Shown: positions 9,506 through 45,621 of the stretch, one piece after another
Layout: every line of letters begins with the position of its first letter
How positions within the stretch are numbered: the stretch's first letter is position 1
Assembly: GCA_965231095.1 (NCBI GenBank)
Contig: OZ246416.1
Coordinates: forward strand, 50,938 to 114,937
Origin: an uncultured Gammaproteobacteria bacterium
GTDB lineage: Bacteria; Patescibacteriota; Patescibacteriia; XYB2-FULL-38-15
Reading direction: 5' to 3'
Length of the DNA stretch: 64,000 nucleotides
Made by a program: the position numbers and the translations under genes
The notes under the pieces: model-generated
The model's database searches: none
The model's input: only the letters and a program-made list of their open reading frames with translations
What the model was told of the DNA's origin: nothing

Positions 9506-9647
9506 AAATTTAGACAGACGACTGACGACAAACGACTGACGACGCGGAGGTTGTTAGTTGTAAGTCGTTAGTTGTAAGTTGTAAGAATTCTTTTATTATT
9601 ATATAATGAAAAAATACAAAAGTCAAAGTTATCTTTGAAGTTGTTTT

Positions 9648-10997
9648 ATGTCCATAAATTCATCAATTTTTAAGGCTTACGATATCCGCGGGATTTACCC
9701 CGAAGATTTGAATGAAGAGGTAGTATACCGTATTGGCCGGGCGGCGGTTGTTATTACCGGCGCGAAAACCGTGGTGATTGGACGTGATGTCCGCGCTTCG
9801 TCGGACGCCCTTTTTGAATCATTGGCAAAAGGCGTAATGGAACAGGGGGCAAATGTGGTTGATATTGGAGTTGTGACCACTCCAATGTTGAATTTTGCGG
9901 TGGGTGAATATAAGGAGCATGAGGCGGGGATTATGGTGACCGCTTCGCATAATCCGAAAGAATATAATGGTTTAAAATTGTGTTATGAAAATACTTTGCC
10001 AATCGGTGAAAATACGGGCATGGCCGAGCTTGCACGGGCGGCCACGGAAGAGAATTTTCCCGCTGCGCCGACTGTTGGTAAATTGGTAAAAAAAGAAATC
10101 TTGAATGCTTATATAGAAAAAGTTTTAAGTTTGGTGGATGTTAAAAAAATCAAACCGTTAAAAGTTGTGGTGGATACGGCGAACGCGGTGGGGGCGGTTC
10201 CATTGCCCGAAATTTTTAAAAAAATTCCGTGTAAATTAATCCCGCTATATTTTGAACTTGACGGAAATTTTCCAAATCATGAAGCCAATCCGCTGAAAGA
10301 AGAAACTTTGGAAGATTTAAAAAAGAAAGTTTTAGAAGAAGGGGCGGATCTTGGCGTGGCAATTGACGGCGACGCCGACCGGATTGGTTTTGTTGATGAA
10401 AAAGGGAACACTGTGCGCGCTGATTTGATTTCAACTTTGATTGCCAAAGAGTTATTACGGGAAAAACCGGGAGAATTAATTTTATATGATGTGCGTTCAA
10501 GTCTGGTAGTTCGTGAAGAAGTTGAAAACGCTGGCGGCCGGGCGGAAATGTGCCGCGTCGGCCACGCCCCAATAAAAAAACAAATGTGGGATCATGGCGC
10601 GCTTTTTGCCGGGGAATTTTCTTCGCATTTTTATTATCGGGATTTTTATAACGTGGAATCCGGAGATCTGACCATGTTGAAATTATTGGAAATTATTAGC
10701 GAGTCCGGGAAAAATTTTAGAGATATTGTCGCGCCGCTTAATCGGTATTTTCATTCCGGAGAAATAAATTTTAAAGTGAGTGATAAGACGGGAAAAATGA
10801 AAGAATTAGAAAAAAAATATGGCGCCGCGGCAAAAGAAGTTTCTCATCTTGACGGAATTCGTTTGGATTTTTCTGATTGGTGGTTTAATGTCCGGCCGTC
10901 AAATACTGAACCGCTTTTAAGATTAAATTTGGAAGCAAAAACAAAAGAAATGATGGAGGAAAAGAAAAAAGAATTAACAGAGTTTATCAACAAATAA
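9648..10997 (+). CDS. phosphomannomutase/phosphoglucomutase family (alpha-D-phosphohexomutase)
   Basis: FKAYDIRG and TASHNPKEYNGLK active-site serine loop; GVAIDGDADR metal-binding loop. Confidence 0.85.
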   Translation: MSINSSIFKAYDIRGIYPEDLNEEVVYRIGRAAVVITGAKTVVIGRDVRASSDALFESLAKGVMEQGANVVDIGVVTTPMLNFAVGEYKEHEAGIMVTASHNPKEYNGLKLCYENTLPIGENTGMAELARAATEENFPAAPTVGKLVKKEILNAYIEKVLSLVDVKKIKPLKVVVDTANAVGAVPLPEIFKKIPCKLIPLYFELDGNFPNHEANPLKEETLEDLKKKVLEEGADLGVAIDGDADRIGFVDEKGNTVRADLISTLIAKELLREKPGELILYDVRSSLVVREEVENAGGRAEMCRVGHAPIKKQMWDHGALFAGEFSSHFYYRDFYNVESGDLTMLKLLEIISESGKNFRDIVAPLNRYFHSGEINFKVSDKTGKMKELEKKYGAAAKEVSHLDGIRLDFSDWWFNVRPSNTEPLLRLNLEAKTKEMMEEKKKELTEFINK

Positions 10998-10999
10998 TT

Positions 11000-11785
11000 A
11001 TGATTGGAGTTTTTGATTCGGGTGTTGGCGGCCTGACGGTGGTGCGCGAGATAATTAAAAAATTACCGGATTACAAAATTATTTATTTCGGCGACACGGC
11101 GCGAACTCCGTATGGCACTAAAAGCAAAGAGACAATTATAAAATACGCCCGCGAAGACGCTAAATTTTTATTGGATCACGGCGCGAAAATAATTGTTATC
11201 GCTTGTAATACCGCCTCGGCCGTGGCGGCGGAGGTTTTGCAGGAAGAATTAAATGTTCCAGTTTTTGAAGTGATTATCCCGGCCGTTTCGGCGGCAGTTT
11301 CCGCGACGCGCGGGAAAATCGGGGTGATTGGGACGCGAGCCACGATTAGAAGCGGCGTTTACGAGGAAATGATAAAAAAAGAAAATAAAAATATAGAGGT
11401 GGAAAGCCAAGCCTGTCCGCTTCTTGTGCCGCTCGTGGAAGAAGCTTGGTTAAACCAGCCGGAAACGAAAAAAATTGTTAGAAAATATCTTCAGCCGTTA
11501 AAAAATAAGCAGATTGATACGTTAATTTTGGGCTGTACGCATTATCCGGTTTTAAAAAATATTATTAAAACGCGGATCGGCCGGAAGGTTAAATTGGTGG
11601 ATTCGGCCGAAGAGGTGGTGGGTAATTTAGAAAAATTTTTGGCGAAAAATAGCGAGGTAGAAAAAAGTTTGGAGAAAGATGGTGAACATAAATTTTTTGT
11701 TTCCGACTTGACGGAGCAGGTGCCGAAAATCGCGGAGAAGTTACTTGGCAGAGCGGTAAAATTTGAAAAAGCGGAAGTGGGGTAA
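11000..11785 (+). CDS. murI: glutamate racemase
   Basis: VFDSGVGGLTV, IACNTAS, LGCTHYP motifs. Confidence 0.9.
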   Translation: MIGVFDSGVGGLTVVREIIKKLPDYKIIYFGDTARTPYGTKSKETIIKYAREDAKFLLDHGAKIIVIACNTASAVAAEVLQEELNVPVFEVIIPAVSAAVSATRGKIGVIGTRATIRSGVYEEMIKKENKNIEVESQACPLLVPLVEEAWLNQPETKKIVRKYLQPLKNKQIDTLILGCTHYPVLKNIIKTRIGRKVKLVDSAEEVVGNLEKFLAKNSEVEKSLEKDGEHKFFVSDLTEQVPKIAEKLLGRAVKFEKAEVG

Positions 11786-11832
11786 ATAATTTAAAGATGA
11801 TCATAAATCATAATTTTTAATAAAATAAAAAA

Positions 11833-12942
11833 ATGTTTCTTACTATAATCGTTTTTATCCTAATCCTCGGCCTTCTCGTTTTTGTCCACGAGCTTGGTCA
11901 TTTTGTCGCCGCGAGAAAAAACGGCGTAAAGGTTGAGGAATTTGGTTTTGGTTTTCCTCCGAGAATTTTTGGGATAAAAAGGGGAGACACAATTTATTCC
12001 TTAAATTGGATACCGCTCGGAGGTTTTGTAAAAATTAAAGGTGAAGGAGGAGAAAACAGGGAAGATGAGGACAGTTTTTCTCATAAAAAAATTTGGCGGC
12101 GCGCGGTAATTTTGGCGGCGGGAGTTTTGATGAATTTTATTTTGGCGGCCGTTCTTTTGTCCATCGGTTTTATGGTCGGCTTGCCTCAAGTGGTTGACGG
12201 AGAAAATGGTTATGCCAAAGTTAAAGACGCTAAAGTTCAAGTTGTCCAGATTTTAGAGGGGACGCCGGCCTCAGAGGCGGGGGTGGCGGTGGGAGATGCG
12301 ATTTTAGAAATTGATGGGCAAACCTTGGAAGAAGTTGAAACCATGCAAAATTATCTCGCGGGAAAAATTGACGCGCCGGTGAAATTTGTTTTGGAAAGAG
12401 ACGGGCAAAAAATTGAAAAGGAAATCAGTCCGACGTTTTTGATTGAAACCGGCCGCGGGGGAATTGGCGTGGGGCTTATAAAAACCGGAATAGTTTCTTA
12501 TCCTTGGTATTTATCTTTATGGAAAGGGGCGGAGAGCGCGGTTTTGTTCACCGGAGAAGTGGTGGTCGCTTTTTATGAATTAATTAAAAATTTAATTGTC
12601 ACGCAAAAAGTTTCCGTTGATCTCTCGGGTCCGGTCGGTATCGCGGTTTTGACCGGACAAGTGGCGAGAATGGGAATAATTTATCTTTTGCAATTTACAG
12701 CGCTGCTCTCTATAAATTTAGCAGTGATAAATTTTTTGCCGTTTCCGGCGTTGGATGGCGGAAGAATTTTATTTTTGATAATTGAAAAAATTCGCCGCAA
12801 GCCGGTCAGCCAAAAAATTGAAAATTTAGTTCATAATATTGGTTTTGGCCTTCTGATGCTTTTAGTGCTGCTCGTCACTTATCGCGATGTTATAAAATTT
12901 AGCGATAAATTTGTGGGATTGTGGGATAAAATCGTAAAATAA
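11833..12942 (+). CDS. rseP: RIP site-2 metalloprotease (M50, RseP family) with PDZ domain
   Basis: HELGHF HExxH in TM1, PDZ domain, LAVINFLPFPALDGG motif. Confidence 0.85.
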   Translation: MFLTIIVFILILGLLVFVHELGHFVAARKNGVKVEEFGFGFPPRIFGIKRGDTIYSLNWIPLGGFVKIKGEGGENREDEDSFSHKKIWRRAVILAAGVLMNFILAAVLLSIGFMVGLPQVVDGENGYAKVKDAKVQVVQILEGTPASEAGVAVGDAILEIDGQTLEEVETMQNYLAGKIDAPVKFVLERDGQKIEKEISPTFLIETGRGGIGVGLIKTGIVSYPWYLSLWKGAESAVLFTGEVVVAFYELIKNLIVTQKVSVDLSGPVGIAVLTGQVARMGIIYLLQFTALLSINLAVINFLPFPALDGGRILFLIIEKIRRKPVSQKIENLVHNIGFGLLMLLVLLVTYRDVIKFSDKFVGLWDKIVK

Positions 12943-12946
12943 TTAT

Positions 12947-13972
12947 ATGATGCAAGAAAACCTTCAACAATTAAAGGCGCGGGCATTGGATGAAATTAAA
13001 AAAATCGGCGACCAAAATCAGCTGCAAAGTTTGGAAATTAAGTATCTCGGCCGAAAAGGGGAGCTGACAAAAATTTTGCGGACGGTCGGCGAATTGCCGG
13101 CGGAAGAACGCGGAAAAATGGGAGATCTTGCAAATCAGGTGAAGCAAGTTTTGGCGAGCGAAATTGGGCGAGTAAAAAAATCTCTCGGCGAAAAAAGTGG
13201 CGGGGTGACAGATGAAAAAGAATGGATTGATGTGACTGCTTCAAAAACGAGCGACGGTTTTGGCCATTTAAATCCGGTTTCTAAAATTCAGTATGAATTA
13301 GAAGATATTTTTTCTTCTATGGGTTTTATGGTTTTGGACGGCCCGGAACTGGAATCGGAATATTATAATTTTGAGGCGCTGAATATTCCCTCCTGGCATC
13401 CGGCGCGGGAAATGCAAGATACTTTTTACGTTGAAGGTGATGGACTCCTGATGCGCACACAGACTTCGGCGATGCAAGTGCGGGCCATGGAAAAATATGG
13501 AGCGCCACTTCGGGCGATTGTGCCCGGCCGCTGTTTTAGAAATGAGGCGACTGATGCCCGTCATGAACATACATTTTATCAATTTGAAGGCTTTATGGTT
13601 GATAAAAATATTTCTTTTGCCAACTTAAAAGCAGTTTTGGAAGTGGTGGCAAGAAAATTATATGGTCCGGAAACAAAAATGCGCTTGCGGCCAAAATATT
13701 TTCCTTTTGTTGAGCCAGGAGTAAATGGTGAAGTGACCTGTTTTTTGTGCCACGGAAAAGGTTGCCGGCTTTGTAAAAATACCGGATGGTTGGAAATTTT
13801 TGGCGCGGGCTTAATTCATCCAAATGTTTTGAAAGCGGGCGGAATCAATCCGGAAAAATGGAGTGGGTTTGCTTTTGGTTTTGGGCTGACGCGGCTCGCA
13901 ATGCTAAAATATGGTATTGATGACGTTAGATTATTTTGTAGCGGAGATATTAGGTTTTTAAATCAATTTTAA
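12947..13972 (+). CDS. pheS: phenylalanine--tRNA ligase alpha subunit
   Basis: FRNEATDARHEHTFYQFEG and GAGLIHPNVL class II aaRS motifs. Confidence 0.9.
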   Translation: MMQENLQQLKARALDEIKKIGDQNQLQSLEIKYLGRKGELTKILRTVGELPAEERGKMGDLANQVKQVLASEIGRVKKSLGEKSGGVTDEKEWIDVTASKTSDGFGHLNPVSKIQYELEDIFSSMGFMVLDGPELESEYYNFEALNIPSWHPAREMQDTFYVEGDGLLMRTQTSAMQVRAMEKYGAPLRAIVPGRCFRNEATDARHEHTFYQFEGFMVDKNISFANLKAVLEVVARKLYGPETKMRLRPKYFPFVEPGVNGEVTCFLCHGKGCRLCKNTGWLEIFGAGLIHPNVLKAGGINPEKWSGFAFGFGLTRLAMLKYGIDDVRLFCSGDIRFLNQF

Positions 13973-13975
13973 TAT

Positions 13976-16408: not shown

Positions 16409-16444
16409 TTATATAATTTAAATAATTAATTTGTAGGGGGAAAT

Positions 16445-16726
16445 ATGATTGAGACAAGTAAAGATTTACTTTACGTAGTTTTGGCTTTTTCGGTTTTGTG
16501 GCTGACGATTTTTCTTTCCTGGATGCTTTACTATGTTATAATGATGCTACGTCAGACAAACCAGGCGGTAAAACATTTCCGCGAAAAAATGGAAAAAGTT
16601 AGCCAGGCCGTGGAGAAAATCAAGGAGAAATTTGAAAACACCTCGGCGTATTTGGGGCTTATCGGCAAGGCCGTGGAGAAAATGGTTGAGTTTATTGGGG
16701 AGAGGAAGAAAAAATCCAGAAAGTAG
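16445..16726 (+). CDS. small membrane protein with coiled-coil tail (hypothetical)
   Basis: 93 aa, one TM helix, KE-rich C-terminus; AGGGGG Shine-Dalgarno-like upstream. Confidence 0.45.
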   Translation: MIETSKDLLYVVLAFSVLWLTIFLSWMLYYVIMMLRQTNQAVKHFREKMEKVSQAVEKIKEKFENTSAYLGLIGKAVEKMVEFIGERKKKSRK

Positions 16727-16819
16727 AAAGAGAATAAGAAGTAAGGGTTTTTAAAGTCAAAATTCCTATTTTAGTTTTTTATAATGTAAGGGGGATTTTG
16801 ACTTTTGAGTTTTATAAAT

Positions 16820-20413: not shown

Positions 20414-20517
20414 TTTTGTTAGTGGAGTTTTACTAAAACCCCATTTTCGTGTATAATTGAATAATGTGTTTTGTTAATATTAGCTCCAAGCGGGGCTGTA
20501 ATATATTTTTTAAAAAT

Positions 20518-21969: not shown

Positions 21970-21996
21970 ATTTAAAAATATTTTTAAGGAGGTACT

Positions 21997-23178: not shown

Positions 23179-23302
23179 AGGGCTTCGCCCTGTGTTATCT
23201 GCACTCGCTCGGAAATGAATAAATTCATTTCTCTTACTCGCTTGATAATAAAAAATTTATATTTATAGAATCTTTGTAAATGGGGGAGACAAAGTTTTAT
23301 TT

Positions 23303-25087: not shown

Positions 25088-25115
25088 TGGATCTAAATCT
25101 ACAAAATAACAAAAA

Positions 25116-25138: not shown

Positions 25139-25145
25139 AACATAT

Positions 25146-27173: not shown

Positions 27174-28460
27174 ATGAAAAAATATTTTATTATTTCCTAC
27201 GGCTGCCAAATGAATAAGAGCGATTCCGAGCGAGTGGCGGCGGCGCTGGAAAAAATCGGTTATAAGCCCGCTCGGAGCGAAGCGCAGGCTGATTTGGTTG
27301 TGCTCGTAGCGTGCTCCGTGCGGCAGGCGGCGGTGGATCGGCTTTTTGGGAAAGCAAGAGAGTTGGCCAAACTTAAAACTCATAACTTAAAACTTAAAAC
27401 AGTTTTAACCGGTTGCGTTTTGCCGCAGGACAAGAAAAAATTTATAGGCAAATTTGATTTTATTTTAAATTTAGAAGATATCTCAAAATTAAAAAATCCA
27501 AAATCCAAGATACAAGATACTAAATACAAAATACTAAACACGGGCTATTTGCACCTTCAGCCGCGGCGTACGGAAAAATTTCGCGCTTACGTGCCGATTA
27601 TGACCGGCTGTAATAATTTTTGTTCATACTGCGCCGTGCCTTATGTCCGGGGAAGGGAAGCAAGCCGCCCAGCCGCCGAAGTCCTGGCCGAAATAAAAAA
27701 TTTAGCAAAAAATGGCTGCCTTGAGGTGACACTTCTTGGACAAAATGTAAATGCTTATCGGCCGAGTGACGTGAAAATTTTTTCCAAAAAAAATCCATAT
27801 AAGCATCCTTTTGCCGCGCTCTTATGGGAAGCAAATCAAACCCCGGGTATAGAGCGAATATTTTTTACCGCGCCGCATCCGCGCGATATGACGGACGATG
27901 TAATTCGCGCTCTGACTTTACCCAAAATGGTAAATTATTTGCATCTGCCGGTGCAGGCGGGCGATGATGAAGTTTTAAAACGGATGAATCGCCGTTATAC
28001 CGTGGCAGATTATTTAAAATTGGTGGCGAAAATAAAAAAGAAAAAACCGGGCATCGCGCTCGGCACGGATATTATTGTTGGATTTCCCGGCGAAACCAAA
28101 AAGGCGTTTCAAAATACTGTGGAACTTTATAAAAAAGCGGATTTTGATATCGCGTATCTGGCAATATACTCGCCACGGCAGGGGACAGCGGCAGCGAAAT
28201 TAGTTGATGATGTTCCGCGGCAAGAGAAAAAACGTCGGCGGGATATTTTGCAAAAGTTAATGGAGAAAATAGTTTTAGAAAAAAATCAAAAGTATGTCGG
28301 AAAGACAGTGTCAGTTTTGGTTGATAAATTTAAAAACGGCCAGTGTGTCGGTAATTCGCGGGAAATGAAAGTAGTACGATTTTCCGGAAAGAAAAATATG
28401 GTTGGGAAAATTTTTGAGGTTAAAGTTAAAAAAGCGTTGGAGTGGATTTTGGAAGGATAA
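27174..28460 (+). CDS. miaB: radical-SAM methylthiotransferase, MiaB/RimO family, with in-frame low-complexity insert
   Basis: MTTase N-domain YGCQMNKSDSE, radical SAM CNNFCSYC, C-terminal TRAM domain; tandem DNA repeats at 27375-27410 and 27490-27545 encode KLKTHNLKLKT and KSKIQDTKYKILNTG. Confidence 0.8.
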   Translation: MKKYFIISYGCQMNKSDSERVAAALEKIGYKPARSEAQADLVVLVACSVRQAAVDRLFGKARELAKLKTHNLKLKTVLTGCVLPQDKKKFIGKFDFILNLEDISKLKNPKSKIQDTKYKILNTGYLHLQPRRTEKFRAYVPIMTGCNNFCSYCAVPYVRGREASRPAAEVLAEIKNLAKNGCLEVTLLGQNVNAYRPSDVKIFSKKNPYKHPFAALLWEANQTPGIERIFFTAPHPRDMTDDVIRALTLPKMVNYLHLPVQAGDDEVLKRMNRRYTVADYLKLVAKIKKKKPGIALGTDIIVGFPGETKKAFQNTVELYKKADFDIAYLAIYSPRQGTAAAKLVDDVPRQEKKRRRDILQKLMEKIVLEKNQKYVGKTVSVLVDKFKNGQCVGNSREMKVVRFSGKKNMVGKIFEVKVKKALEWILEG

Positions 28461-29248: not shown

Positions 29249-30232
29249 ATGAAAGTGTCAAGAATTAAACCCCGCCTAAAGGCGGGACTCCGATCGGAGT
29301 ATAAATTGCCAAAACTAATTGTTATTTTAGGTCCGACGGCGTCGGGAAAGACGGGCTTGTCTTTGAAATTGGCAAAAAAATTTGGTGGAGAAATCGTGAA
29401 TGCCGACTCGCGGCAAGTTTATAAAAAAATGGATATTGGAACTGGAAAAGTTGAAAATAAAAAAGGAGTAAGGCATTATTTGTTGGACGTGGTCAATCCC
29501 GACGAAGAGTTTACTTTGGCAGGTTATAAAAAAAAAGCCGTGGCGGCGATTGACCATATTTTGAAACGTGGGAAAACCCCGTTTTTAGTCGGTGGCACTG
29601 GGTTATATATTCAAGCCATCGTGGACAACTTAACTATTCCCAGTGTTCCGCCGAATAAGAAACTTCGCACTGAATTCGAGCATGAACTGGCTAAAGCAAA
29701 AGAATTAGGAATTAAGAAGTATGAATTAAGAGTTTTGGAGAAGTGGTTTAAGAAATTATTAAAACTTGATCCTTGCGTAAAAGATGTAGTGGACGCTAAA
29801 AATCCGCGGAGAATAATTCGGGCGCTGGAAATTTGTCTTGCAACCGGCCGGCCGTTTTCAAAAATGCGGGGAAAGGGCGAGCCGTTGTTTCACGCGCTAC
29901 AACTTGGCATCACCATGCCGCGAGAAAAACTTTATAAAAATATTGATGATCGCGTAGACGAAATGATTAAAGACGGGTTAATAGAGGAGACAAAAAAATT
30001 ATTAAAAAAATATAATCCGAATATCCCATCAATGAGCGGGATTGGATATAAAGAAATAGGGGACTATCTGGGTGGAAGCTATGATTTAGATGAGGCGGCA
30101 GAGAAAATTAAATTTCGAACGCACGCGTACGCTCGGCGGCAGATGACGTGGTTCCGCCGTGGTAAAAGAATTAAGTGGATAAAAAATTATAAAGAAGCGG
30201 AACGAAAAATTGGTAAATGGCTAAATGGTTAA
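29249..30232 (+). CDS. miaA: tRNA dimethylallyltransferase; real start probably the SD-preceded TTG near 29309 (the first ~60 nt as tracked look like island B promoter/operator sequence)
   Basis: P-loop ILGPTASGKT, DSRQVYK motif; annotated N-terminal 20 aa are GC-rich and contain hairpins and the palindrome ACTCCGATCGGAGT. Confidence 0.8.
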   Translation: MKVSRIKPRLKAGLRSEYKLPKLIVILGPTASGKTGLSLKLAKKFGGEIVNADSRQVYKKMDIGTGKVENKKGVRHYLLDVVNPDEEFTLAGYKKKAVAAIDHILKRGKTPFLVGGTGLYIQAIVDNLTIPSVPPNKKLRTEFEHELAKAKELGIKKYELRVLEKWFKKLLKLDPCVKDVVDAKNPRRIIRALEICLATGRPFSKMRGKGEPLFHALQLGITMPREKLYKNIDDRVDEMIKDGLIEETKKLLKKYNPNIPSMSGIGYKEIGDYLGGSYDLDEAAEKIKFRTHAYARRQMTWFRRGKRIKWIKNYKEAERKIGKWLNG

Positions 30233-30284
30233 ATTGTTAAAACAAAAACGCCCCGGGATATAACCGAGGTGTTTTTTTATTTTT

Positions 30285-31850
30285 TTATGACAACTTCTTT
30301 TTAATAATTTCTTCGGCGACTTTTGGATTGGCCTTTCCTTGAGTTTTTTTCATTGTCTGGCCGATGAAGAATTGGAGAAGCGCTAGTTTACCTTGTTTAT
30401 ATTCCGCTACTTCCTCGGGATGTTCAGCGATCAGCGCGTCAATTATTTTTTCAAGTTCCCCGGTATCGCTAATTTGGCCAAGATTTTTACTTTCCATAAT
30501 CTGCGAAGGATCGCCGCCGGTCATCATCATTTCTTCAAGAATTTTTAAGGCCGTCGGACCGGAAATTTTATTTTGATAAATCATGGTGATAAATTCGGCA
30601 AAATTTTCCGGAGTGATTTTCAAGCGGCGAATATCAATTTTATTGTCCGCCATCAAACCGCCGAGTTTATTGATAAGCCATCCGGCGAGGAGGCGAACTA
30701 ATTTATGTTTATGCTTTTCCCAAATTTCTTTTTCCGTGCCTTCTACTTCTTCCAGCGACAAAAGCCATGACTGAAGTTCGGAAATAACGTTTTCCGCGTA
30801 GCTAGCTAATTTTTTATCTTCAACTAAAATTCGCGTTTCTTCTTCGGTAAATTCGTATTGAGTTATAAATCGGATTTTTTTGGCGCGCGGCAATTCGGGC
30901 AGATGGCCGATAACTTTATCGCGTAATTTACTTAAATCAAGTGGCGGCAAATCCGGTTCGGGAAAATAGCGATAATCATTTTCCGCTTCTTTGGTGCGCT
31001 GCGGAACGGTTTTCTGCCCCGCATCATCCCAGCCGCGAGTCGTCGTGACGGCCGGCGGTTTTCCGGCTTCCCAAAGTTCGGTTTGTCTTTTTATTTCATA
31101 CTCAAGCGCTCGCTCAACCGCCCGGAAAGAATTTAAATTTTTAATTTCCGTTTTCGCATTAAGTTTAAGAAGATTTTTTTCTTTAGCAGGATTATCCAAA
31201 GCTTCTCGAAGAGAAATATTGGCGTCGCAGCGGAGATGCCCCTTTTCCATATCGGCATCGGAAATTTCAAGATAGCGGGCAATGAGCCGCAATTCTTGCA
31301 TAAAAATTTTTGCTTCAAGTGGTGAATGCAAATCCGGTTCAGTGACAATCTCCAAAAGCGGCGTGCCGGAACGGTTGTAATCAATCAGGCTGTATTTTCC
31401 GTCTTCGCTATGGAAATTTTTAGCCGCGTCTTCTTCAAGATGGACGCGGTTGATTTTTATTTTTGCCCAAGGGCGTTGTTTTTTTTCATCCTTGGTCGGA
31501 ATATCAATTTCCAGAAATCCGCCCAGACAGACAGGTTTGTCGTATTGAGAAATTTGATAACCCTTTGGCAGATCAGGATAAAAATATTGTTTGCGGTCAA
31601 ATTTTGATTCATCTTGGATTTTACAATTCAAAGCCATGGCCAGAAGTCCCGCCCATTCGAGCGCCTGCTCATTTATGACTGGCAATGTGCCGGGATGGCC
31701 CATGCAGATCGGGCAGACGGTAGAGTTCGGCGGTTGGTCTTCGCCGGTATTGTCGCAACCGCAGAACATTTTTGATTTTGTTTTCAATTGGACATGGATT
31801 TCAAGCCCAATGACCGGGACGAGATGCATAAAAAATAATTCAAAAATCAA
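30285..31850 (-). CDS. gatB: aspartyl/glutamyl-tRNA amidotransferase subunit B
   Basis: VIGLEIHVQLKTKSKMFCGCDN...CPICMGHPGTLPV, GatB/YqeY C-terminal domain; start may be the internal Met (MHLVPVIGLE) at 31829. Confidence 0.9.
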   Translation of the reverse strand: MIFELFFMHLVPVIGLEIHVQLKTKSKMFCGCDNTGEDQPPNSTVCPICMGHPGTLPVINEQALEWAGLLAMALNCKIQDESKFDRKQYFYPDLPKGYQISQYDKPVCLGGFLEIDIPTKDEKKQRPWAKIKINRVHLEEDAAKNFHSEDGKYSLIDYNRSGTPLLEIVTEPDLHSPLEAKIFMQELRLIARYLEISDADMEKGHLRCDANISLREALDNPAKEKNLLKLNAKTEIKNLNSFRAVERALEYEIKRQTELWEAGKPPAVTTTRGWDDAGQKTVPQRTKEAENDYRYFPEPDLPPLDLSKLRDKVIGHLPELPRAKKIRFITQYEFTEEETRILVEDKKLASYAENVISELQSWLLSLEEVEGTEKEIWEKHKHKLVRLLAGWLINKLGGLMADNKIDIRRLKITPENFAEFITMIYQNKISGPTALKILEEMMMTGGDPSQIMESKNLGQISDTGELEKIIDALIAEHPEEVAEYKQGKLALLQFFIGQTMKKTQGKANPKVAEEIIKKKLS

Positions 31851-31885
31851 AAGTCAAAATGCAAAATTAATTTTGTAATAAAAAT

Positions 31886-32656: not shown

Positions 32657-32686
32657 ATAAATTTGTATTGATTCGCTATGATTTGC

Positions 32687-33987: not shown

Positions 33988-33994
33988 AAATGTT

Positions 33995-34492: not shown

Positions 34493-34495
34493 AAA

Positions 34496-35494: not shown

Positions 35495-35498
35495 AAAA

Positions 35499-36541: not shown

Positions 36542-36662
36542 ATGATAATAGTGTCATTGCGAGCGGAACGTAGTGGAGCGAAGCAATCTCATGGGGTTTA
36601 GAAACAAGGGGATTGCCGCGTCGCTTCCTTCGGTCGCTCCTCGCAATGACATGTTGAGTGTG

Positions 36663-37193: not shown

Positions 37194-37296
37194 ATAAGTT
37201 TAGATCAAATTATTTATTAGTCAGTCTTTATATTTTAGCAAAATGAAAAAGAATAGGCAATTAAAAATCAAGGGGGATAAATGGCGCCAAAATAAG

Positions 37297-37329
37297 CAAA
37301 AAAACACCCCGATTAGAGGGTGTTTTTTA
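37297..37329 (-). terminator. intrinsic terminator downstream of rplA
   Basis: aaaaaaACACCCcgattagaGGGTGTtttttat. Confidence 0.65.
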
Positions 37330-37342
37330 TGTAAAATTTTAA

Positions 37343-38020
37343 TTATACGCTAAGTTTTATTCCCGGGCCCATGGTGGTGCAAAGTACCGCGGTTTGGATG
37401 TAGACACCCTTGGATGCCGCCGGTTTGGCTTTTTTCACCACTTCAATAAACATGGTCAAATTTTCCAAAAGCTTTTCTTTATCGTAGGAAACTTTGCCGA
37501 GTAATTGATGAATATTCCCGCCATCATCATTTTTGAAATTGATTTTTCCTTTTTTTAATTCACCAATTATTTTTTTGATGTTTGGGTTAACAGTTTCTGT
37601 TTTTGGATTTGGCATCAAACCCTTTGGACCCAAAATTTTCGCGATCTGGGCCAATTTAGGCATCATGGAGGGCGTTGCCACGGCGATTTCAAAGTTTGCT
37701 CTTTCTGTGGATTTGATTTCTTTAATCAAGTCCTCACCGCCGACAATTTCCGCTCCGGCTTCTTTCGCTTCTTTTTCCAAGGCCGGTTCAACGAAAGCGG
37801 CAATTTTTTTGGTCTTGCCGATTCCGTGCGGTAAAACTAAAGTGCCGCGCACGAGCTGGTCGCCTTTTTTAGGATCAATACCAAGTTTGATGTGGACTTC
37901 CACGCCGGCATCAAATTTTTCTTTTGGTCCGTTTTTTATTAAGTCCAAAGCCTCGGCGAGCGAATAGCTCTTTTTCGGGTCAATGGATTTTTTTGTTTCT
38001 TCGTAGCGTTTTCCGCGCAT
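37343..38020 (-). CDS. rplA: 50S ribosomal protein L1
   Basis: 225 aa; GKTKKIAAFV, L1 fold motifs. Confidence 0.9.
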   Translation of the reverse strand: MRGKRYEETKKSIDPKKSYSLAEALDLIKNGPKEKFDAGVEVHIKLGIDPKKGDQLVRGTLVLPHGIGKTKKIAAFVEPALEKEAKEAGAEIVGGEDLIKEIKSTERANFEIAVATPSMMPKLAQIAKILGPKGLMPNPKTETVNPNIKKIIGELKKGKINFKNDDGGNIHQLLGKVSYDKEKLLENLTMFIEVVKKAKPAASKGVYIQTAVLCTTMGPGIKLSV

Positions 38021-38044
38021 AAGTTTTTGGTGGTAATAACGTCC

Positions 38045-38190
38045 CCCACTAATTTTGCCATCGATAGATAAAAGTAATTTTGAGTGATTAATTTATTTTC
38101 TAAATTTGTGGCGCCGCTTGCCCGAATAGGGCAGGGCTATTCGCCCTCGCGGCGCCCCCGGGATCGGGAGCAAAATTAGTGGGGGACTCC
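38045..38190 (-). promoter_or_regulatory. large structured leader upstream of rplA: 17-bp outer inverted repeat enclosing GC-rich hairpins (possible L1-binding autoregulatory mRNA mimic or inserted GC-rich element)
   Basis: tcccccactaattttgc (38046-38062) pairs with gcaaaattagtggggga (38166-38184); inner ggcgccgc...gcggcgcc and cgaatag..ctattcg stems. Confidence 0.45.
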
Positions 38191-38203
38191 CACAAATTAT
38201 TTT

Positions 38204-38641
38204 TTAAACTTCTTTATTGTTTTCTTTCGACTCTTTTGTTTCTTTGCTAATCATTTTCCAGTGCCACAAGAACAGGGGAATAGCAACAACGAGCATGGAA
38301 ATATCGCGAACAGCGTTTTTCTGTTTTCTCGCAACTTTCATAATTCCTTGCTGATCCTGCCAATTTTTATAATCAACCAACCAATTTTGAATCTGCAATT
38401 TTTCGTCGGCAGTCAGGTCGCATTTTTCCGCGCAACGCTCGGCCGTTTCACCCTGCGCCCGCTCATTAATCATGTAAGGAACCGGCGGCGCCCATTCATC
38501 GGCGCGATCAGCGTTTTTAAAGACCCAAGTTTTGAGGCCGAGATTTGCGAGATCAACCGTTCCCCAAACAATCATCATTAAAGCAATCAAGGCAATCAGG
38601 TAGAAATAAACCGTTCGGATTGAGTTTAGTTTGATGGCCAT
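38204..38641 (-). CDS. hypothetical membrane protein inserted between rplK and rplA
   Basis: Start set at MAIKLNSIRTVYFYLIALIALMMIVW (TM helix); upstream track extension is GC-rich overlap with island G. Confidence 0.5.
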   Translation of the reverse strand: MAIKLNSIRTVYFYLIALIALMMIVWGTVDLANLGLKTWVFKNADRADEWAPPVPYMINERAQGETAERCAEKCDLTADEKLQIQNWLVDYKNWQDQQGIMKVARKQKNAVRDISMLVVAIPLFLWHWKMISKETKESKENNKEV

Positions 38642-38724
38642 ACATTGTAAATTAAGAGAAATAATTTTTTGTTCGCATAAAATTAGGTGGGGGAGTACTT
38701 GCGGAAGCACGCCCCCAACCTGGT

Positions 38725-38940
38725 CTACTTGGTCGCTGGTGGTGTTACGGCGTCGCCGTGATGGACGGGACAATTGGGGTCGTCTCGCTTAATCACATTC
38801 AGCTTTATCCCCATGCCAGTGCGCAAATGTCCGCAGGTGCATCTTGGGTCTACTCTGCCCAATCCGAAGCACGAGCAAACGGCAAAGTTGCAGTCGTCAT
38901 AGAATACGGCGCCGCACTTGTCACACCGGAATTCATGCAT
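38725..38940 (-). CDS. GC-rich island G: 71-aa Cys-rich putative metal-binding protein
   Basis: MHEFRCDKCGAVFYDDCNFAVCSCFGLGRVDPRCTCGHLRTG...NCPVHHGD (8 Cys, 4 His); SD GGAGG 7 nt before ATG; hairpin tgggggagtacttgcggaagcacgccccca at 38691-38722. Confidence 0.5.
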   Translation of the reverse strand: MHEFRCDKCGAVFYDDCNFAVCSCFGLGRVDPRCTCGHLRTGMGIKLNVIKRDDPNCPVHHGDAVTPPATK

Positions 38941-39008
38941 CTCTTTCCTCCTTCTCTTTACGGGAACAAAAAATTATTTCTCAAAATTTTTAATGAACTT
39001 TTATTATT

Positions 39009-39434
39009 TTATCCAACGACTTCCAAACCCATCTGCCGCGCCGTGCCTTCAATAGTTCTCATCGCCGCGTCAATATCATGAGCATTCAAGTCCGGCATTT
39101 TTTTCTCGGCGATTTCCCGGATTTGCGCTTTTGTCACTTTGCCAACTTTTTCCTGAAGCGGTTTTCCTGAACCCTTGGCGATTCCCGCTGCTTTTTTCAA
39201 AAGTTCAGCCGCCGGAGGAGTTTTTAAAATGAAAGTATAGGTGCGGTCTTCGTAAACCGTGATTTCCGCCGGAATAACATCGCCGGCCATTTTTGCAGTC
39301 GCGGCATTGAACTTCGTGCAGAACTCAGCGATATTCAAACCATGCTGACCCAAGGCCGGGCCGATTGGCGGCGCGGGGTTTGCTTTAGCAGCCTCAATTT
39401 GTAATTTTATTACTGTCTTAATTTTTTTTGCCAT
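39009..39434 (-). CDS. rplK: 50S ribosomal protein L11
   Basis: [35 protein letters not shown]. Confidence 0.9.
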
Positions 39435-39501
39435 AATTCTTATGTTACATAGTTAAGAGCTAAACTAGAAGCCTTTAGCGCTTAATAATGTAATTTTTAT
39501 T

Positions 39502-40047
39502 TTATATTTTTTTAACTTGTAAAAAATCCAGTTCTACCGGAGTTTCGCGGCCAAACATACTCACTAATACTTTAACTTTTCCGCGAGCTTCGTCAATCGC
39601 CGAAATTTTTCCTTCAAAGCCCTTAAACGGCCCGTCATTAATTTTAACCGGCGCGCCGACCGTGACATCAATTTTATATTGCGGTTCTTCTTCACCCATT
39701 CTTTTTTGTAAAACTTTTATTTCCGCTTCGGAAAGGGGAGTCGGGATTGTGCCCGTGCCGATAAAACCGGTGACATTCGGCGTATTTCGGACAACATACC
39801 ACGAATCATCAGTGACAAGCATTTCCACTAAAACATATCCCGGAAAAATTTTTTCAATGACTGTCCGGCGTTTGCCGTTTTTTATTTTTATCTTTTTTTC
39901 GGTGGGAATCAAGACATTGAAAATTTTGTCCTGCATTGCCATTGATTCAATTCTTTGTTTTAAATTGTGGGCGACATTTTCTTCATAACCGGAATAAGTG
40001 TGAATCGCGTACCAGAGCCGGCCTCTTTGGGCTATTTGTTTAGGCAT
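39502..40047 (-). CDS. nusG: transcription termination/antitermination factor NusG
   Basis: WYAIHTYSGYEENV NGN domain, KOW domain GPFKGFEG. Confidence 0.9.
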   Translation of the reverse strand: MPKQIAQRGRLWYAIHTYSGYEENVAHNLKQRIESMAMQDKIFNVLIPTEKKIKIKNGKRRTVIEKIFPGYVLVEMLVTDDSWYVVRNTPNVTGFIGTGTIPTPLSEAEIKVLQKRMGEEEPQYKIDVTVGAPVKINDGPFKGFEGKISAIDEARGKVKVLVSMFGRETPVELDFLQVKKI

Positions 40048-40094
40048 AAATAAAATTCAAAAGTCAAAATTCAAAAGTCAAAAGTTTTGTAAAA

Positions 40095-40295
40095 TTACTT
40101 TATATATTTTTCCAAGAGCCAAGTAAAAAGAAAATCAAGCGCTCCAAGAAAAACAGCCACGCCCAAACTTATGCCGATCACGGCCAGAGTGTGGTTTGTG
40201 GTTTCGCGTCTTGTCGGCCAGACAACTTTCTTTAATTCCCGATAAGAATCGCGAAAGTAGTTTGTTAATTTGTTGTTGGGAATGGATAGTTGCAT
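40095..40295 (-). CDS. secE: preprotein translocase subunit SecE
   Basis: 66 aa, single C-terminal TM; conserved position upstream of nusG. Confidence 0.8.
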   Translation of the reverse strand: MQLSIPNNKLTNYFRDSYRELKKVVWPTRRETTNHTLAVIGISLGVAVFLGALDFLFTWLLEKYIK

Positions 40296-40448
40296 GTTTT
40301 TATGTATTTTAAGCGGTTTTTAGCAAAATTTATGGTATTTAAAACAGCCCTGGGGGCTATTTAAATAAAGTATAGCACAGGGTGGAAAAAGCGCAAGGGC
40401 TGGGGGGTGATATAAATAAAAATGCGCCAAATTTGATAACAATTTTAG

Positions 40449-42506
<2,058 letters not shown>

Positions 42507-42717
42507 TTAAACCTCTCCGCCCACGGCGGAAAATGAGGTGAAATTGGCTAATATTTATTAAGTTATTATAGCATAGATTATTTTGTAAAACAAGGGTTTA
42601 ATGTTTGACTTTTTATAATAAAAAAAGATAGGATAAAAGCGCTTCTCATGGCGAGAAGACCCGGGCCACGGGCAGTGGCAAATTACCTTCGGGCTTACAG
42701 TCCGGAAGGAGACAGAA

Positions 42718-43632
42718 ATGGCGAAGTATGAAAAGCTGAACCTGGGTCAGATTGAAGCGCTCGTGAACATCTTGGGTGGCATGGAGGTCGTGAAGAAGAT
42801 TCTTCGCGGGACGAAGAAGCCTCTTCCCCCGGACAAAGGCTTTCGGTCCCTTTTTGACAACTACGGCCGCCGCGTTGCGCCTCCTACGATGAGCGACAAG
42901 GGAGGAGCCGATCCGGAGGTGTGTTTGGCTCAGCCGGCGATGCATCTTCCACCGGGACCGGGAACAAGGTTCAAGGGTTTGTGCGAACGCCTTGGCTGGC
43001 AGAACCAGATGACTCCGGAAGAATTTCGCGCGCGGGTGGACAAGGCGGTAGAGAAGATCAACTTCGGCAGCATCAGAGAAGAGGTGAGGGGAATTTTGGG
43101 TGGTGTGTATCTGCCCTTTGGTCTTCCGCAGGTGACCTCCAGCGATTGCGGGGAGATCCTTGACGAACTCGGCTTGATCAATGCGGTTGAGCGTGTTTTC
43201 AAGGAAAGATTTCCCGAGGGGCAGTTTTTCGGACAAGAAAAATCCCTGAAGGGAGGCTTCCGCTTGATCGAAGGAAGTCGCCACGAGCGATTTTTGGAGG
43301 CCTTGACAAAGGAGCCGGTCGTTGCCATCTACTTCCCATTGGCGCTCCAAGGGTATTTGCCCGATAAGGCCGTCGAGCAGATGGAGAGCCTGCCGGAAGA
43401 GTTTCTGCTTTCCGGTGTGGTTGATACAGCGGCGGCGATCATGATGTATCCGGAAGTTCTACTTCGGGACACCTGCGTGCCGCAGCTCGGATGTTCGGCA
43501 GTGAAGCGCTGGGTGACCGGAGTTTCCTCATTCGATGTCAGTGACGGCAGCGACAAGATCACGCTCGCCTTCGGGGGGTGCCAGATCTTTGGGCGCGGCA
43601 AGTTTACTTCCGGCCTCACCGTCATCGCGTAG
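42718..43632 (+). CDS. GC-rich island C: hypothetical 304-aa protein, no recognisable domain
   Basis: ~60% GC; SD GGAAGGAGA 6 nt before ATG; TTGACT promoter-like element at 42605; downstream terminator 43695-43728. Confidence 0.6.
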   Translation: MAKYEKLNLGQIEALVNILGGMEVVKKILRGTKKPLPPDKGFRSLFDNYGRRVAPPTMSDKGGADPEVCLAQPAMHLPPGPGTRFKGLCERLGWQNQMTPEEFRARVDKAVEKINFGSIREEVRGILGGVYLPFGLPQVTSSDCGEILDELGLINAVERVFKERFPEGQFFGQEKSLKGGFRLIEGSRHERFLEALTKEPVVAIYFPLALQGYLPDKAVEQMESLPEEFLLSGVVDTAAAIMMYPEVLLRDTCVPQLGCSAVKRWVTGVSSFDVSDGSDKITLAFGGCQIFGRGKFTSGLTVIA

Positions 43633-43694
43633 TGCAGAGTCGTTGTGCCTTGAGTTAAACCCGATAAGGGTTTGATTCTTGGACGCTAGTCGTC

Positions 43695-43728
43695 TGAGCG
43701 GATCCCGTGCGGTCCGCTCTTTTTTATA
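43695..43728 (+). terminator. intrinsic terminator of island C
   Basis: GAGCGGAtcccgtgcggTCCGCTCtttttt. Confidence 0.65.
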
Positions 43729-43783
43729 TTCGCCCAGATTTCATTTTTTTGGTATAATATAAATGTAATTAAAATTATTTTTT

Positions 43784-44653
43784 ATGGCAGTAGGAGTTGA
43801 GGGCCGAATGGCCGCACAATTGGACCGTGAACGGGTTTGGGGCTTTACTGATGATGAGAAATTTAACCGTGAGATTGCGCGGCCATGGAAAGACTCCGCT
43901 TTTAATCCGGAAGATTTTGTCGGCCGGCCGTACGCGCGCGCGGAAATTGCCGCGGATTTAGAGAGAGTTTCGGAAATAAAAAAATCTCCGGAGTTTGTGC
44001 ACGAACGAAGGAGCGAGGCGGTTGCTCTGGAATATGTTTTGATGGAAGGAATAAAAGTTCATGGTTGGTTTGGGGACAACGTGGAGTCGGTTCAAAAAAC
44101 TTCAGAATACGACGATGTGATGAATGGCGCGGATTTTGTCGTGACATTTCACGATGAGGATACGGATAGATTTATCCATTTGGCAGTTGATGCTACGACT
44201 TCTTCGGACGAAATGGTTCTTTGGCGTAAGGCGGAAAAAAATTTTGAAAAATTGGCCGGAGGGAAAATGGCAAAAATAAAATATTTTGAAGATCCGGATG
44301 AAACAGCGGGCGAGGTTCAAATGCCGCGAGTTGTTTTGGCCTTAAGCCCGGAAAAAACCGTGGCGTTACAAAAATTAATGTCCAATCCCAAAAACGCGGT
44401 AGGGGACGCGGCGGAAAAATATGAGTTTCTCGCTTCAGTGGAAAATCAATTATTAAAATTTATAAATTATATTTTGATTCGCGGAAAATTTCTCGGTGAA
44501 GGAAGAGACCTTAAAAGTTACGGCGAAGTTTTGGAGTTTATGTCGCGCCATGATGGAGATTTGGATGAAAAAACAAAAAATTTAATTTCAGCGCACATGG
44601 ATGTCTTGCAGTTTGTGTATGCCTCCGCGCCAAGACCGAAATCCTTGCATTAA
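43784..44653 (+). CDS. hypothetical protein (intermediate GC ~48%)
   Basis: 289 aa, no recognised motif; TATAAT -10 upstream. Confidence 0.45.
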   Translation: MAVGVEGRMAAQLDRERVWGFTDDEKFNREIARPWKDSAFNPEDFVGRPYARAEIAADLERVSEIKKSPEFVHERRSEAVALEYVLMEGIKVHGWFGDNVESVQKTSEYDDVMNGADFVVTFHDEDTDRFIHLAVDATTSSDEMVLWRKAEKNFEKLAGGKMAKIKYFEDPDETAGEVQMPRVVLALSPEKTVALQKLMSNPKNAVGDAAEKYEFLASVENQLLKFINYILIRGKFLGEGRDLKSYGEVLEFMSRHDGDLDEKTKNLISAHMDVLQFVYASAPRPKSLH

Positions 44654-44670
44654 ATTAATCATACAAAAAT

Positions 44671-45537
44671 ATGGACAACCAAAATCAGCCGGCGGATTTT
44701 ACCGAAAGCCAATTAAAAGTCGCTTCATGGTATGTCTCCCATAAAATTTTGTTGAAGAAAATTTTTATAGGTTTTTTGATTTTTTTGTGCGCGATTTTTT
44801 GGGGATTTGGGCTTTATGGTTTGATAAATTATTATTTTATTGAAGGTCCGAGTTTTAATTTGGCGATCAGAGAATTGAGCCGCGGAACGGATTATTCCAT
44901 TATCAATCAAAAAATTCAGCCAAAAGGCTTAGATATTGGAACAACGACAATTTTTTCTTCGGGAAAGGGGAGATATGATTTTGTGGGAAAGATTTTTAAT
45001 TCCTCCGCCGATTGGCGCGCGGAATTTACTTATGATTTTTTAGTGGATGGGGTGGCGCGAGCGGGGAAGAGCGGATTTATTTTGCCCGGCGAGGAAAAAT
45101 ATATTTTTGAACTTGGCGTGGAGGCGCCGGCAAAACCGCGTTCCGCGACTTTAGAAATTAAAGAGATAAAATGGCAGAGAATTGACGCCCACGAAATTTC
45201 CGATTACGCCGCCTGGCAGGACGAGCGCTTGAATTTTCCCGTGGCCGACGTGAAATTTACTCCGGCGGCGGTCGGAGAAAATATTCCGATAAGCCGAGCG
45301 TCTTTTACGGCGCGAAACGCGACAGCTTTCAGTTTTTGGGATGTGGGTTTTGCTATTTTTCTTTATCGCGGAAGTTCGGTTGCCAGCGTAAATTACGTGA
45401 CACTTGAGGAATTTCGTTCTGGACAAACCCGCCCGGTTGAAGTAAGTTGGTTTGAAACATTGCCAAGCATTACGCAAGTAAAAGTCGTACCGGAAGTGAA
45501 TATTTTTGATCCAAAAGTTTTCATGCCGGTGAATTAA
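44671..45537 (+). CDS. hypothetical membrane-anchored protein
   Basis: 288 aa, N-terminal TM region ILLKKIFIGFLIFLCAIFWGFGLYGLINYYF. Confidence 0.45.
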   Translation: MDNQNQPADFTESQLKVASWYVSHKILLKKIFIGFLIFLCAIFWGFGLYGLINYYFIEGPSFNLAIRELSRGTDYSIINQKIQPKGLDIGTTTIFSSGKGRYDFVGKIFNSSADWRAEFTYDFLVDGVARAGKSGFILPGEEKYIFELGVEAPAKPRSATLEIKEIKWQRIDAHEISDYAAWQDERLNFPVADVKFTPAAVGENIPISRASFTARNATAFSFWDVGFAIFLYRGSSVASVNYVTLEEFRSGQTRPVEVSWFETLPSITQVKVVPEVNIFDPKVFMPVN

Positions 45538-45621
45538 TTTAAAAGTCAAAGGTCAAAAATCAAAGGTCAAAAATTAAAGTCGAAATCCGAAATTTTGTCT
45601 TTTGAATTTTGACTTTTTGTT

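Follow-up and report, generated by a model that had tools for sequence, protein, structure and literature searches.

Why should one short motif with a TTGAC core, AAAGTCAAAA/TTTTGACTTT, recur directly in front of housekeeping genes in the 64 kb stretch of DNA analysed here (the window), of which ~92% is coding and 8.4% non-coding? The original prediction had offered a -35-like or UP-like promoter element, the binding site of a global regulator or a lineage-specific dispersed repeat. Our data show that the motif is not a discrete site but the repeating unit of tandem heptamer arrays, (TTTTGAC/TTTTGAA)n. The idea of a dispersed repeat was thus essentially right but understated the case, as the motif is just one unit of a wider period-7 phenomenon. 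The source organism is placed, by the identity of its RodA (86% and 73%) to RodA from metagenome-assembled genomes (MAGs) named Candidatus Falkowbacteria, within this group of the candidate phyla radiation (CPR/Patescibacteria). The window itself forms part of a Logan assembly contig. For comparison, a set of 80 RodA-anchored loci was used, in which the relatives are labelled L001, L003, L004, L005, L006 and L012.

The recurrence as such is real. With both strands scanned and with dinucleotide-preserving shuffles (n = 100) as the null, exact AAAGTCAAAA was found seven times in the window with 0.76 +/- 0.79 matches expected, a count reached by 0/100 shuffles, and with one mismatch allowed there were 47 matches against an expectation of 21.6. 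Six of the seven exact copies, i.e. four of five independent loci, are located in the small non-coding fraction, which bears out an enrichment outside of genes; the seventh (4807-4816) lies within a coding region. The sites that had been named, upstream of the phosphohexomutase gene, dnaE, gatB, nusG and rodA, are all present, with coordinates that were right to 1-2 bases:

16753-16762 (plus strand) and 16796-16805 (minus strand), the dnaE copies, flanking a TATAAT at 16780-16785.
31850-31859, the gatB copy, an exact AAAGTCAAAA.
40060-40069 and 40074-40083, the nusG copies, inside a 4.9-copy period-7 array.
45607-45616, the exact rodA copy, with one-mismatch copies over 45542-45609 in both orientations.
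9619-9647 (plus strand), upstream of the phosphohexomutase (PGM/PMM) gene, a single one-mismatch unit AAAGTCAAAG at 9619-9628 plus a partial inverted partner CTTTGAAGTTG, ahead of the ATG at 9648.

The last of these is the weakest, as its small hairpin is not significant (dG -5.6, z -1.3; RNA folds were scored by dG and z throughout, with 200 shuffles as the null for hairpins). The gene identities hold as well. Pfam confirms PGM/PMM and DnaE, and also S2 (rpsB) and EF-Ts (tsf), while GatB, NusG and FtsW/RodA are Pfam hits on record; the start codon of DnaE is confirmed by a PHP domain that begins at residue 4.

What these sites are made of becomes apparent from their periodicity. In a scan for arrays of at least three units with at least 85% identity at a given lag, lag 7 yielded 18 arrays in the window compared with 0.45 in shuffles, whereas lags 6, 8 and 9 yielded 0, 1 and 0, respectively. 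The autocorrelation of the non-coding DNA peaks at lags 7 and 14, and Tandem Repeats Finder assigns a period of 7 or 14 to 17 of the 28 arrays it detects in the window. TTTTGAC/TTTTGAA (together TTTTGAM) is the commonest unit, accompanied by at least ~10 others, among them TTAGTTA, GACNGAC, GTTGTAA, AGTAATT, GTTACNC, ATTTTAG, ACAATTA and GTTAACT; single-linkage clustering (up to one mismatch) chained nearly all of the AT-rich units and gave no objective unit families. About 12 of the ~20 arrays in the window are non-coding.

The same holds beyond the window. In the CPR loci, 59 of 103 arrays lie in the ~15% of DNA outside of open reading frames (ORFs), and pooled CPR loci contain 14 lag-7 arrays per 100 kb but only 1.6 at lag 8. 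Loci titled non-CPR contain 3.2 lag-7 arrays per 100 kb, and in most of these loci the arrays detected by Tandem Repeats Finder have periods in multiples of 3. The CPR loci themselves differ in a patchy manner, with period-7 arrays being common in some of them, e.g. L023 (Moranbacteria) and L034 (Nealsonbacteria). In L004, the relative with 86% RodA identity, Tandem Repeats Finder detects six period-8 arrays (such as TTTAACYA upstream of rodA) alongside period-7 ones, so that the preferred register is not strictly 7 in every lineage. A metagenome scan for TTTTGAN x3 retrieved many unrelated organisms (GC content 31-68%) with no orientation bias and is thus uninformative on function here. Scans of viral contigs gave at least 120 matches each for TTTTGAN x3 and for two control heptamers that are rotations of one another, numbers from which no relative abundance can be read. 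An assembly artefact was considered and rejected, because assemblies of independent origin (Logan, two from ENA, GenBank MAGs) also contain the arrays and because these should be shorter than typical sequencing reads.

Where do the arrays sit with respect to genes? Three arrays of direct repeats lie shortly before start codons:

40052-40086 (minus strand), nusG array in the secE-nusG spacer, reading on the sense strand TTTTGAC TTTTGAA TTTTGAC TTTTGAA TTTTATTT ATG (40047).
31837-31867 (minus strand), gatB array, sense TTTTGCA TTTTGAC TTTTGAT TTTTGAA TTATTTTTT ATG (31829).
7940-7977 (minus strand), TAACTGA-like array, sense CTGCTAA CTGATAA CTATTAA CTAATAA CTAAAAAT ATG, filling the spacer before the gene at 6692-7939.

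For the first of these, Tandem Repeats Finder reports a period of 7 and 4.9 copies (40052-40085); it assigns a period of 7 or 14 also to arrays at 31840-31867, at 45541-45617 and at more than 10 further sites. The TTTTGAM arrays end 8, 9, 8 and 10 nucleotides (nt) before the ATG of nusG, gatB, rodA and dnaE, respectively, and all four are U-rich on the sense strand. The leaders of nusG (dG -2.3, z +0.5) and gatB (dG -1.7, z +0.2) are predicted to be unstructured, and the array at 7940-7977 wholly so (dG 0).

This position close to the start codon bears directly on the promoter reading, in which the downstream gene would be served by the TTGAC core as its -35 hexamer or by the A/T tracts as an UP element. 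That the motif contains TTGAC, that a TATAAT is found between the two dnaE copies and that arrays of some relatives lie upstream of a conserved -35 element (as in L004, in the spacer downstream of rodA) all seem to fit. An array ending 8-10 nt from the ATG leaves no room, however, for a -10 box and a transcription start, and the nusG array is located within an operon, between secE and nusG. A consensus scan of 39400-47000 produced no excess of promoters (11 sites, 10.5 expected), with none at nusG, and the sole match that crosses an array (TTGACT at 45609, 17-nt spacer, AATATT) has its -10 box inside rodA. The upstream dnaE copy points the wrong way to act as a -35 element, and in L001, L004, L005, L006 and L012 arrays have been swapped for other units or lost. 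A TTGACT-17-TAACAT promoter at 46745, in front of rplY, has kept its sequence in L001, L004, L005 and L012, which the arrays have not. We therefore consider a promoter function highly improbable. To judge from their sequence, the promoters of this organism are likely to be TGnTATAAT boxes 6-30 nt from start codons. Such -10 boxes are seen at this distance from the ATG of many genes (e.g. 20464, 43784, 49623, 57140 and 57848; at 20464 the order is TATAAT TGAATA ATG), which suggests very short or absent leaders.

If the direct arrays do not act on DNA in this way, what is conserved about them? At nusG, the 25 nt that directly precede the ATG match the window at 24/25 positions in L003 and at 25/25 in L004, while the third codon positions of the gene show just 71-74% identity between the window and its relatives; it is this difference that points to purifying selection on the ATG-proximal part of the array. 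The distal spacer (-60 to -26) is ~60-66% identical in L003 and L004. L001, with an identical NusG protein and equal synonymous divergence, has an entirely different leader with a Shine-Dalgarno-like GGAG...GAAGGA, and the array is thus replaceable by a Shine-Dalgarno-type initiation region. The gatB spacer of L001 is only ~20 nt long and has no array. Within the window, a 4-mer Shine-Dalgarno match 4-13 nt upstream of the start codon is present in 11 of 58 genes and in 0/5 of those flagged as having an upstream array.

The unit length has a further consequence. As 7 = 2x3+1, three units with TGA, TAA or TAG place a stop codon in all three frames, and hence stop-containing units are limited to spacers, whereas units inside genes are stop-free (AAAATAC, AAAATTG). 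We infer that direct U-rich (UUUUGAM)n arrays may serve as a structure-free leader without a Shine-Dalgarno sequence, i.e. as the translation-initiation region of nusG and gatB, which would run to 8-10 nt before the AUG and, with three units, would put UGA in every frame ahead of the start. U-rich, Shine-Dalgarno-independent translational enhancers and unstructured start sites are familiar from targets of ribosomal protein S1 and from the leader of E. coli rnd; these likewise combine a U-rich unstructured leader with a downstream start that lacks a Shine-Dalgarno sequence, but they are not periodic.

A second class of arrays occurs as inverted pairs:

45541-45579 (plus strand), rodA 5' arm, A-rich units AAAAGTC/AAAGGTC/AAAAATC (Tandem Repeats Finder period 14, 2.8 copies).
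45591-45617 (plus strand), rodA 3' arm, TTTTGTC TTTTGAA TTTTGAC TTTTTGTT ATG (45622).
16753-16762 (plus strand), dnaE 5' arm, AAAGTCAAAA, with the TATAAT (16780-16785) in the loop.
16793-16813 (plus strand), dnaE 3' arm and short array TTTTGAC TTTTGAG TTTTATA, the whole run being TTTTGAC TTTTGAG TTTTATAAAT ATG (16820).
54416-54528 (plus strand), rpsB-tsf spacer, stem of (AGTAATT)n at 54416-54440 and (GTTACNC)n at 54495-54528, the 3' arm ending ~9 nt before the tsf ATG (54537).
9513-9585 (plus strand), lemA/PGM divergent spacer, (GACNGAC)n at 9513-9543 and (GTTGTAA)n at 9550-9585, stem of ~30 bp rich in G-U pairs.

All four are predicted to fold into hairpins matched by 0/200 shuffles: rodA, where 45541-45579 pairs with 45591-45617 (dG -21.1, z -4.1), dnaE (dG -21.6, z -4.4), rpsB-tsf (dG -45.3, z -6.8) and the plus strand of 9513-9585 (dG -37.9, z -8.6). 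For the last, the minus strand is far less stable (dG -16.1, z -2.5), an asymmetry that is expected for G-U pairing and thus indicates pairing of RNA or single-stranded DNA on the plus strand. The array stems are long and rich in A-U and G-U pairs, unlike the short GC-rich stem and U tract of the canonical terminators found elsewhere in the window, and the rodA hairpin was not flagged by an intrinsic-terminator scan, which covered 39400-47000 and thus none of the dnaE, rpsB-tsf and 9506-9590 hairpins. Rfam at gathering threshold found only two tRNAs in the whole window and no match at the arrays. A GC-rich palindrome, CCCTCCTTNNNAAGGAGGG, is present in two copies (53310-53328 and 54459-54477; 0 expected by chance) that flank rpsB, the second being located in the loop of the rpsB-tsf array hairpin.

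A global test for inversion was of limited use: with Watson-Crick partners required within 200 nt of an array at 13/14 matches, 16 cases were found as compared with 2 and 12 in two controls. As this test is confounded by AT-rich low complexity, we turned to fold z-scores and a comparison of orthologous spacers in its place. Upstream of rodA, the spacer contains a significant hairpin in four genomes including L001, L004 and L005, with differing sequences, and a U run follows this hairpin in three of the four; the spacer downstream of rodA is unstructured in all genomes compared. Likewise, the rpsB-tsf spacer has a significant hairpin in four genomes, formed in L004, L006 and L012 by inverted arrays of other units. 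In these orthologous hairpins, the arms consist of different heptamers, of octamers in L004 or of a plain stem in L005, and both arms change their unit together between genomes. The inverted pairs would thus be A-U/G-U-rich intercistronic hairpins (rodA, dnaE, rpsB-tsf), which probably act as attenuator, processing or stability structures. Known intercistronic attenuator or RNase III-type hairpins and the intervening sequences of 23S rRNA resemble the long spacer hairpins of the rpsB-tsf type and the rRNA insertions described below, with the difference that the predicted array stems here are AU/GU-rich.

Heptamer arrays are not confined to start codons or even to spacers. Further arrays in the window are:

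27369-27400 and 27484-27538 (plus strand), two in-frame arrays in the MiaB-like gene, encoding LKLKTHNLKLKT and KSKIQDTKYKILNT.
48871-48904, 49047-49084 and 49267-49307 (minus strand), three in-frame arrays in prmC, the last encoding KIQNTKYKIQDT.
29700-29731 (plus strand), in-frame array (AAGAATT) in miaA.
57012-57048 (plus strand), GAPDH 3' array (ATTTAAG/ATTTTAG), beginning at the GAPDH stop codon, before a canonical terminator.
59623-59664 (plus strand), EamA 5' array (ACAATTA/ACAGTTG), which takes up the spacer ahead of the gene for the EamA transporter (59660-60565).
60559-60595 (plus strand), EamA 3' array (GTTAACT/GTCAACT), the reverse complement of the 5' array, at the EamA stop codon.

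The arrays inside genes encode loops rich in Lys, Ile, Asn, Gln and Thr, e.g. KIQNTKYKIQDT in PrmC and KSKIQDTKYKILNT in MiaB, and an AAAATAC/AAGATAC unit is common to the MiaB and PrmC arrays. At the three array positions of prmC, orthologues differ by +12, +21 and +24 nt as well as in their units. L001 and L004 lack the array encoding KIQNTKYKIQDT, and the PrmC of L001 has an 8-residue gap at this place. Even rRNA is affected: the 23S rRNA gene of L023, a Moranbacteria MAG (4089-8472), is 4384 nt long compared with 2925 positions in the Rfam model, and its insertions are partly heptamer arrays, some of them inverted, such as (AAATCCA)n...(TTGGAAA)n at 5020-5165 and 6002-6144. The two EamA arrays (59623-59664 and 60559-60600) are complementary (duplex -31.3 kcal/mol, z -9, 0/300 shuffles), so that the TTAACAG unit type brackets the entire gene of 906 nt. 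This could reflect pairing between the 5' and 3' ends of the mRNA, an invertible segment or the relic of an insertion.

This breadth of locations is hard to reconcile with an operator, i.e. with a DNA-binding regulator, possibly a global one, that would control housekeeping genes via tandem or inverted TTTTGAC heptads. The TTTTGAM unit does recur at five loci, direct and inverted, its nusG copy is conserved, and tandem short boxes can be operators, as the MetJ metboxes illustrate. On the other hand, some 10 unrelated unit types behave alike, the spacing of inverted half-sites varies from 4 nt and 33 nt up to ~900 nt, orthologous spacers exchange units, and arrays are found in coding sequences and rRNA. 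In addition, comparison across related genomes showed tandem TTTTGANTTTTGA to be limited to the window and its closest relative, L004, among 82 loci. A regulator-binding site, as had also been proposed, thus appears very unlikely. Only slightly less remote, in our estimation, is a selfish palindromic element akin to miniature inverted-repeat transposable elements or repetitive extragenic palindromic (REP) sequences, spreading between spacers. Hairpin-forming inverted arms at several loci, dispersed unit types with TTAACAG bracketing a whole gene and the TTTTGAN arrays in many unrelated metagenome contigs, GC-rich ones included, would be in line with such an element, but the copies have neither ends nor flanks in common, target-site duplications and near-identical copies were not seen among them, many arrays are direct only, and arm lengths and loops vary freely among loci.

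We consider it rather probable that the arrays are heptanucleotide simple-sequence repeats generated by slippage, which act at the RNA level as leaders or hairpin arms. Accordingly, arrays would arise and turn over by slipped-strand mispairing in 7-nt steps, with intramolecular template switching probably also involved in forming the inverted pairs, and selection would then filter what is produced. The neutral version of this scenario, in which the arrays are a mere by-product, i.e. slippage debris tolerated wherever it is harmless and close to start codons just because spacers are short, seems unlikely to us. It accommodates the many different units, the in-frame arrays in proteins with orthologues that lack them, the 23S rRNA insertions, arrays that follow stop codons rather than precede starts (57012, 60559), the lack of an orientation rule across CPR loci or metagenomes and the fact that L001 does without the nusG and gatB arrays. 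It does not readily explain why, at nusG, the ATG-proximal part of the array by far exceeds both synonymous sites and the distal half of the spacer in conservation, why two spacers each retain a hairpin in four genomes despite sequence turnover, or why one hairpin (9513-9585) features strand-asymmetric G-U pairing.

Several observations also weigh against slippage followed by recruitment at the RNA level. There are only four TTTTGAM loci, which makes their orientation and spacing weak statistics, and in pooled CPR loci the arrays that separate co-directional genes have an A-rich sense strand more often than a U-rich one (21 vs 10). The nusG array keeps four units in the window, L003 and L004, and with its copy number unchanged slippage is not directly seen there. 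Look-ups of identical proteins, aimed at near-identical strains that might differ in copy number, gave the source contig alone for RodA and no record for S2. Recurrence of the same units (five loci for TTTTGAM, three for TTAACAG and two, MiaB and PrmC, for AAGATAC) is not obviously what independent slippage would produce. The hairpins are AU-rich, and the only one covered by the terminator scan (rodA) was not flagged. Finally, absence of a Shine-Dalgarno sequence is not specific to genes with arrays, as 81% of the genes here have none; with the genome being Shine-Dalgarno-poor overall, the arrays would supply an A/U-rich unstructured start context rather than replace a Shine-Dalgarno sequence.

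How do these arrays relate to known heptanucleotide repeats? Mazel in 1990 is said to have described heptanucleotides among the short tandemly repeated repetitive (STRR) sequences of cyanobacteria, and Mrazek in 2007 reportedly found that long simple-sequence repeats with heptameric units are generally in excess in prokaryotes. The arrays in the window conform to this class in having at least three head-to-tail units, a specific period of 7 and an intergenic over-representation. They share with STRR sequences a unit of exactly 7 nt, several unit families per genome, a patchy phylogeny and a proposed origin by slippage, and differ in being short (3-8 units), AT-rich and part of a streamlined, ~92%-coding genome. 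For cyanobacterial STRR sequences and the prokaryotic excess of heptameric repeats, passages in two papers (PMC4679880, PMC4692102) name polymerase slippage as the proposed cause. In Xanthomonas and Nostoc, heptameric GGGAATC/GGGGAYT repeats are intergenic, sometimes inverted, capable of forming stem-loops (Rehm 2015, PMC4692102) and kept between the same genes despite extensive variation in length and sequence (PMC4692102), and the same paper remarks on the lack of detailed literature on heptameric repeats. The arrays of the window are likewise intergenic heptamers, kept in the same gene spacers and inverted in some cases; unlike the G-rich units of Xanthomonas and Nostoc, which form G-quadruplexes, their A/U-rich units cannot do so.

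Another close parallel is provided by direct repeats of the heptamer TAACTGA in marine Beggiatoaceae and also in some Cyanobacteria and Bacteroidetes (MacGregor 2015, PMC4679880). These arrays are located within a few nt of start codons, in the position of a Shine-Dalgarno sequence, and a translational role has been proposed for them (PMC4679880). As here, 7-nt units (there in 2-6 copies) are arranged in tandem, usually where a Shine-Dalgarno sequence is absent, before essential genes including ribosomal-protein operons, and occasionally within ORFs or inverted (PMC4679880). In line with this pattern, 4/4 TTTTGAM arrays are forward and 8-10 nt from the ATG, and a Shine-Dalgarno sequence is absent in 5/5 flagged genes. 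Differences exist as well: a single unit dominates there (169 sets, PMC4679880), whereas many units are used here with TTTTGAM as the commonest; hairpin-forming inverted pairs, prominent here, are rare there; and the lineage here is CPR. A single array of the window, at 7940-7977, resembles TAACTGA itself. No description of heptamer arrays in CPR bacteria turned up in the literature searched. The best-supported reading is that the arrays of CPR/Falkowbacteria belong to the known class of bacterial heptanucleotide repeats.

A candidate reason for a 7-nt register on RNA is offered by CspB of B. subtilis, which, according to a statement cited in PMC4679880, binds heptamer repeats with one protein per heptamer and a preference for T-rich ones. 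By analogy, the 7-nt period could be a functional RNA register, with each heptad being the footprint of one oligonucleotide/oligosaccharide-binding (OB)-fold module, i.e. a cold-shock or S1 domain. We regard this as a speculative and rather improbable idea; a tblastn search of the window and of loci L001-L083 with a CspB sequence as query turned up no gene for a cold-shock-domain protein. If true, direct arrays would load a chaperone filament that keeps Shine-Dalgarno-less starts open, or would let 70S ribosomes scan from an upstream stop codon, inverted arrays would give rise to processed hairpins, as in the 23S rRNA insertions, and lineages would swap units but hold the geometry constant. 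The arrays would then constitute a layer of post-transcriptional organization that extends across the CPR and has not been described before.

For genome annotation, clusters of TTGAC repeats upstream of CPR core genes should not be read as promoters or operators. It is also evident that a streamlined, ~92%-coding genome still carries fast-evolving heptamer arrays, which are put to use, or at least tolerated, as initiation leaders, hairpin arms, protein loops and rRNA insertions. The secE-nusG spacer provides a natural contrast: three lineages have an array leader under purifying selection, and a fourth, whose NusG protein is identical, has one of Shine-Dalgarno type. It thereby makes the long-standing question of what heptanucleotide repeats such as STRR sequences and TAACTGA do a testable one.

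Apart from the heptamer arrays, the window contains several other elements. Between genes on the plus and the minus strand, a GC-rich stretch of 512 nt (50978-51489) has no called gene, but features, near 51040, a TTGACA-17-TAGAGT that resembles a strong promoter and has a TG extension, and near its end a hairpin followed by a T run. It has no Rfam match even at E <= 1, and an Rfam E-value scan of 50300-53700 gave chance-level matches only; this stretch is a candidate for an unannotated non-coding RNA. The genes rplK and rplA are separated by an insertion (38021-39008) with a DUF5671-like ORF (38204-38773) and a small Cys-rich ORF on the minus strand (~38790-38960) that is preceded by a strong Shine-Dalgarno sequence; the L001 version of this insertion is shorter. 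In the spacer upstream of rplA (38021-38203), which is very highly structured (dG -79.6, z -7.8), GCAAAATTAGTGGGGGAC occurs as an inverted pair. A long GC-rich palindromic spacer element, GTCATTGCGAG...CTCGCAATGAC, is found at 36542-36662 (dG -39.6), and in L006 a similar element, GTCATTCCCGC...GCGGGGATGAC, replaces the nusG array; by their sequences, these GC-rich palindromes look like a separate REP-like repeat family. Finally, the divergent spacer of 220 nt that separates gyrB from the gene at 42718 carries, within 42605-42717, one copy of TTTGACTTTT and, after it, a structured, GC-rich leader (~80 nt) with GGAAGGAGACAGAA ATG at its end; this may represent an uncharacterised element of a 5' untranslated region.

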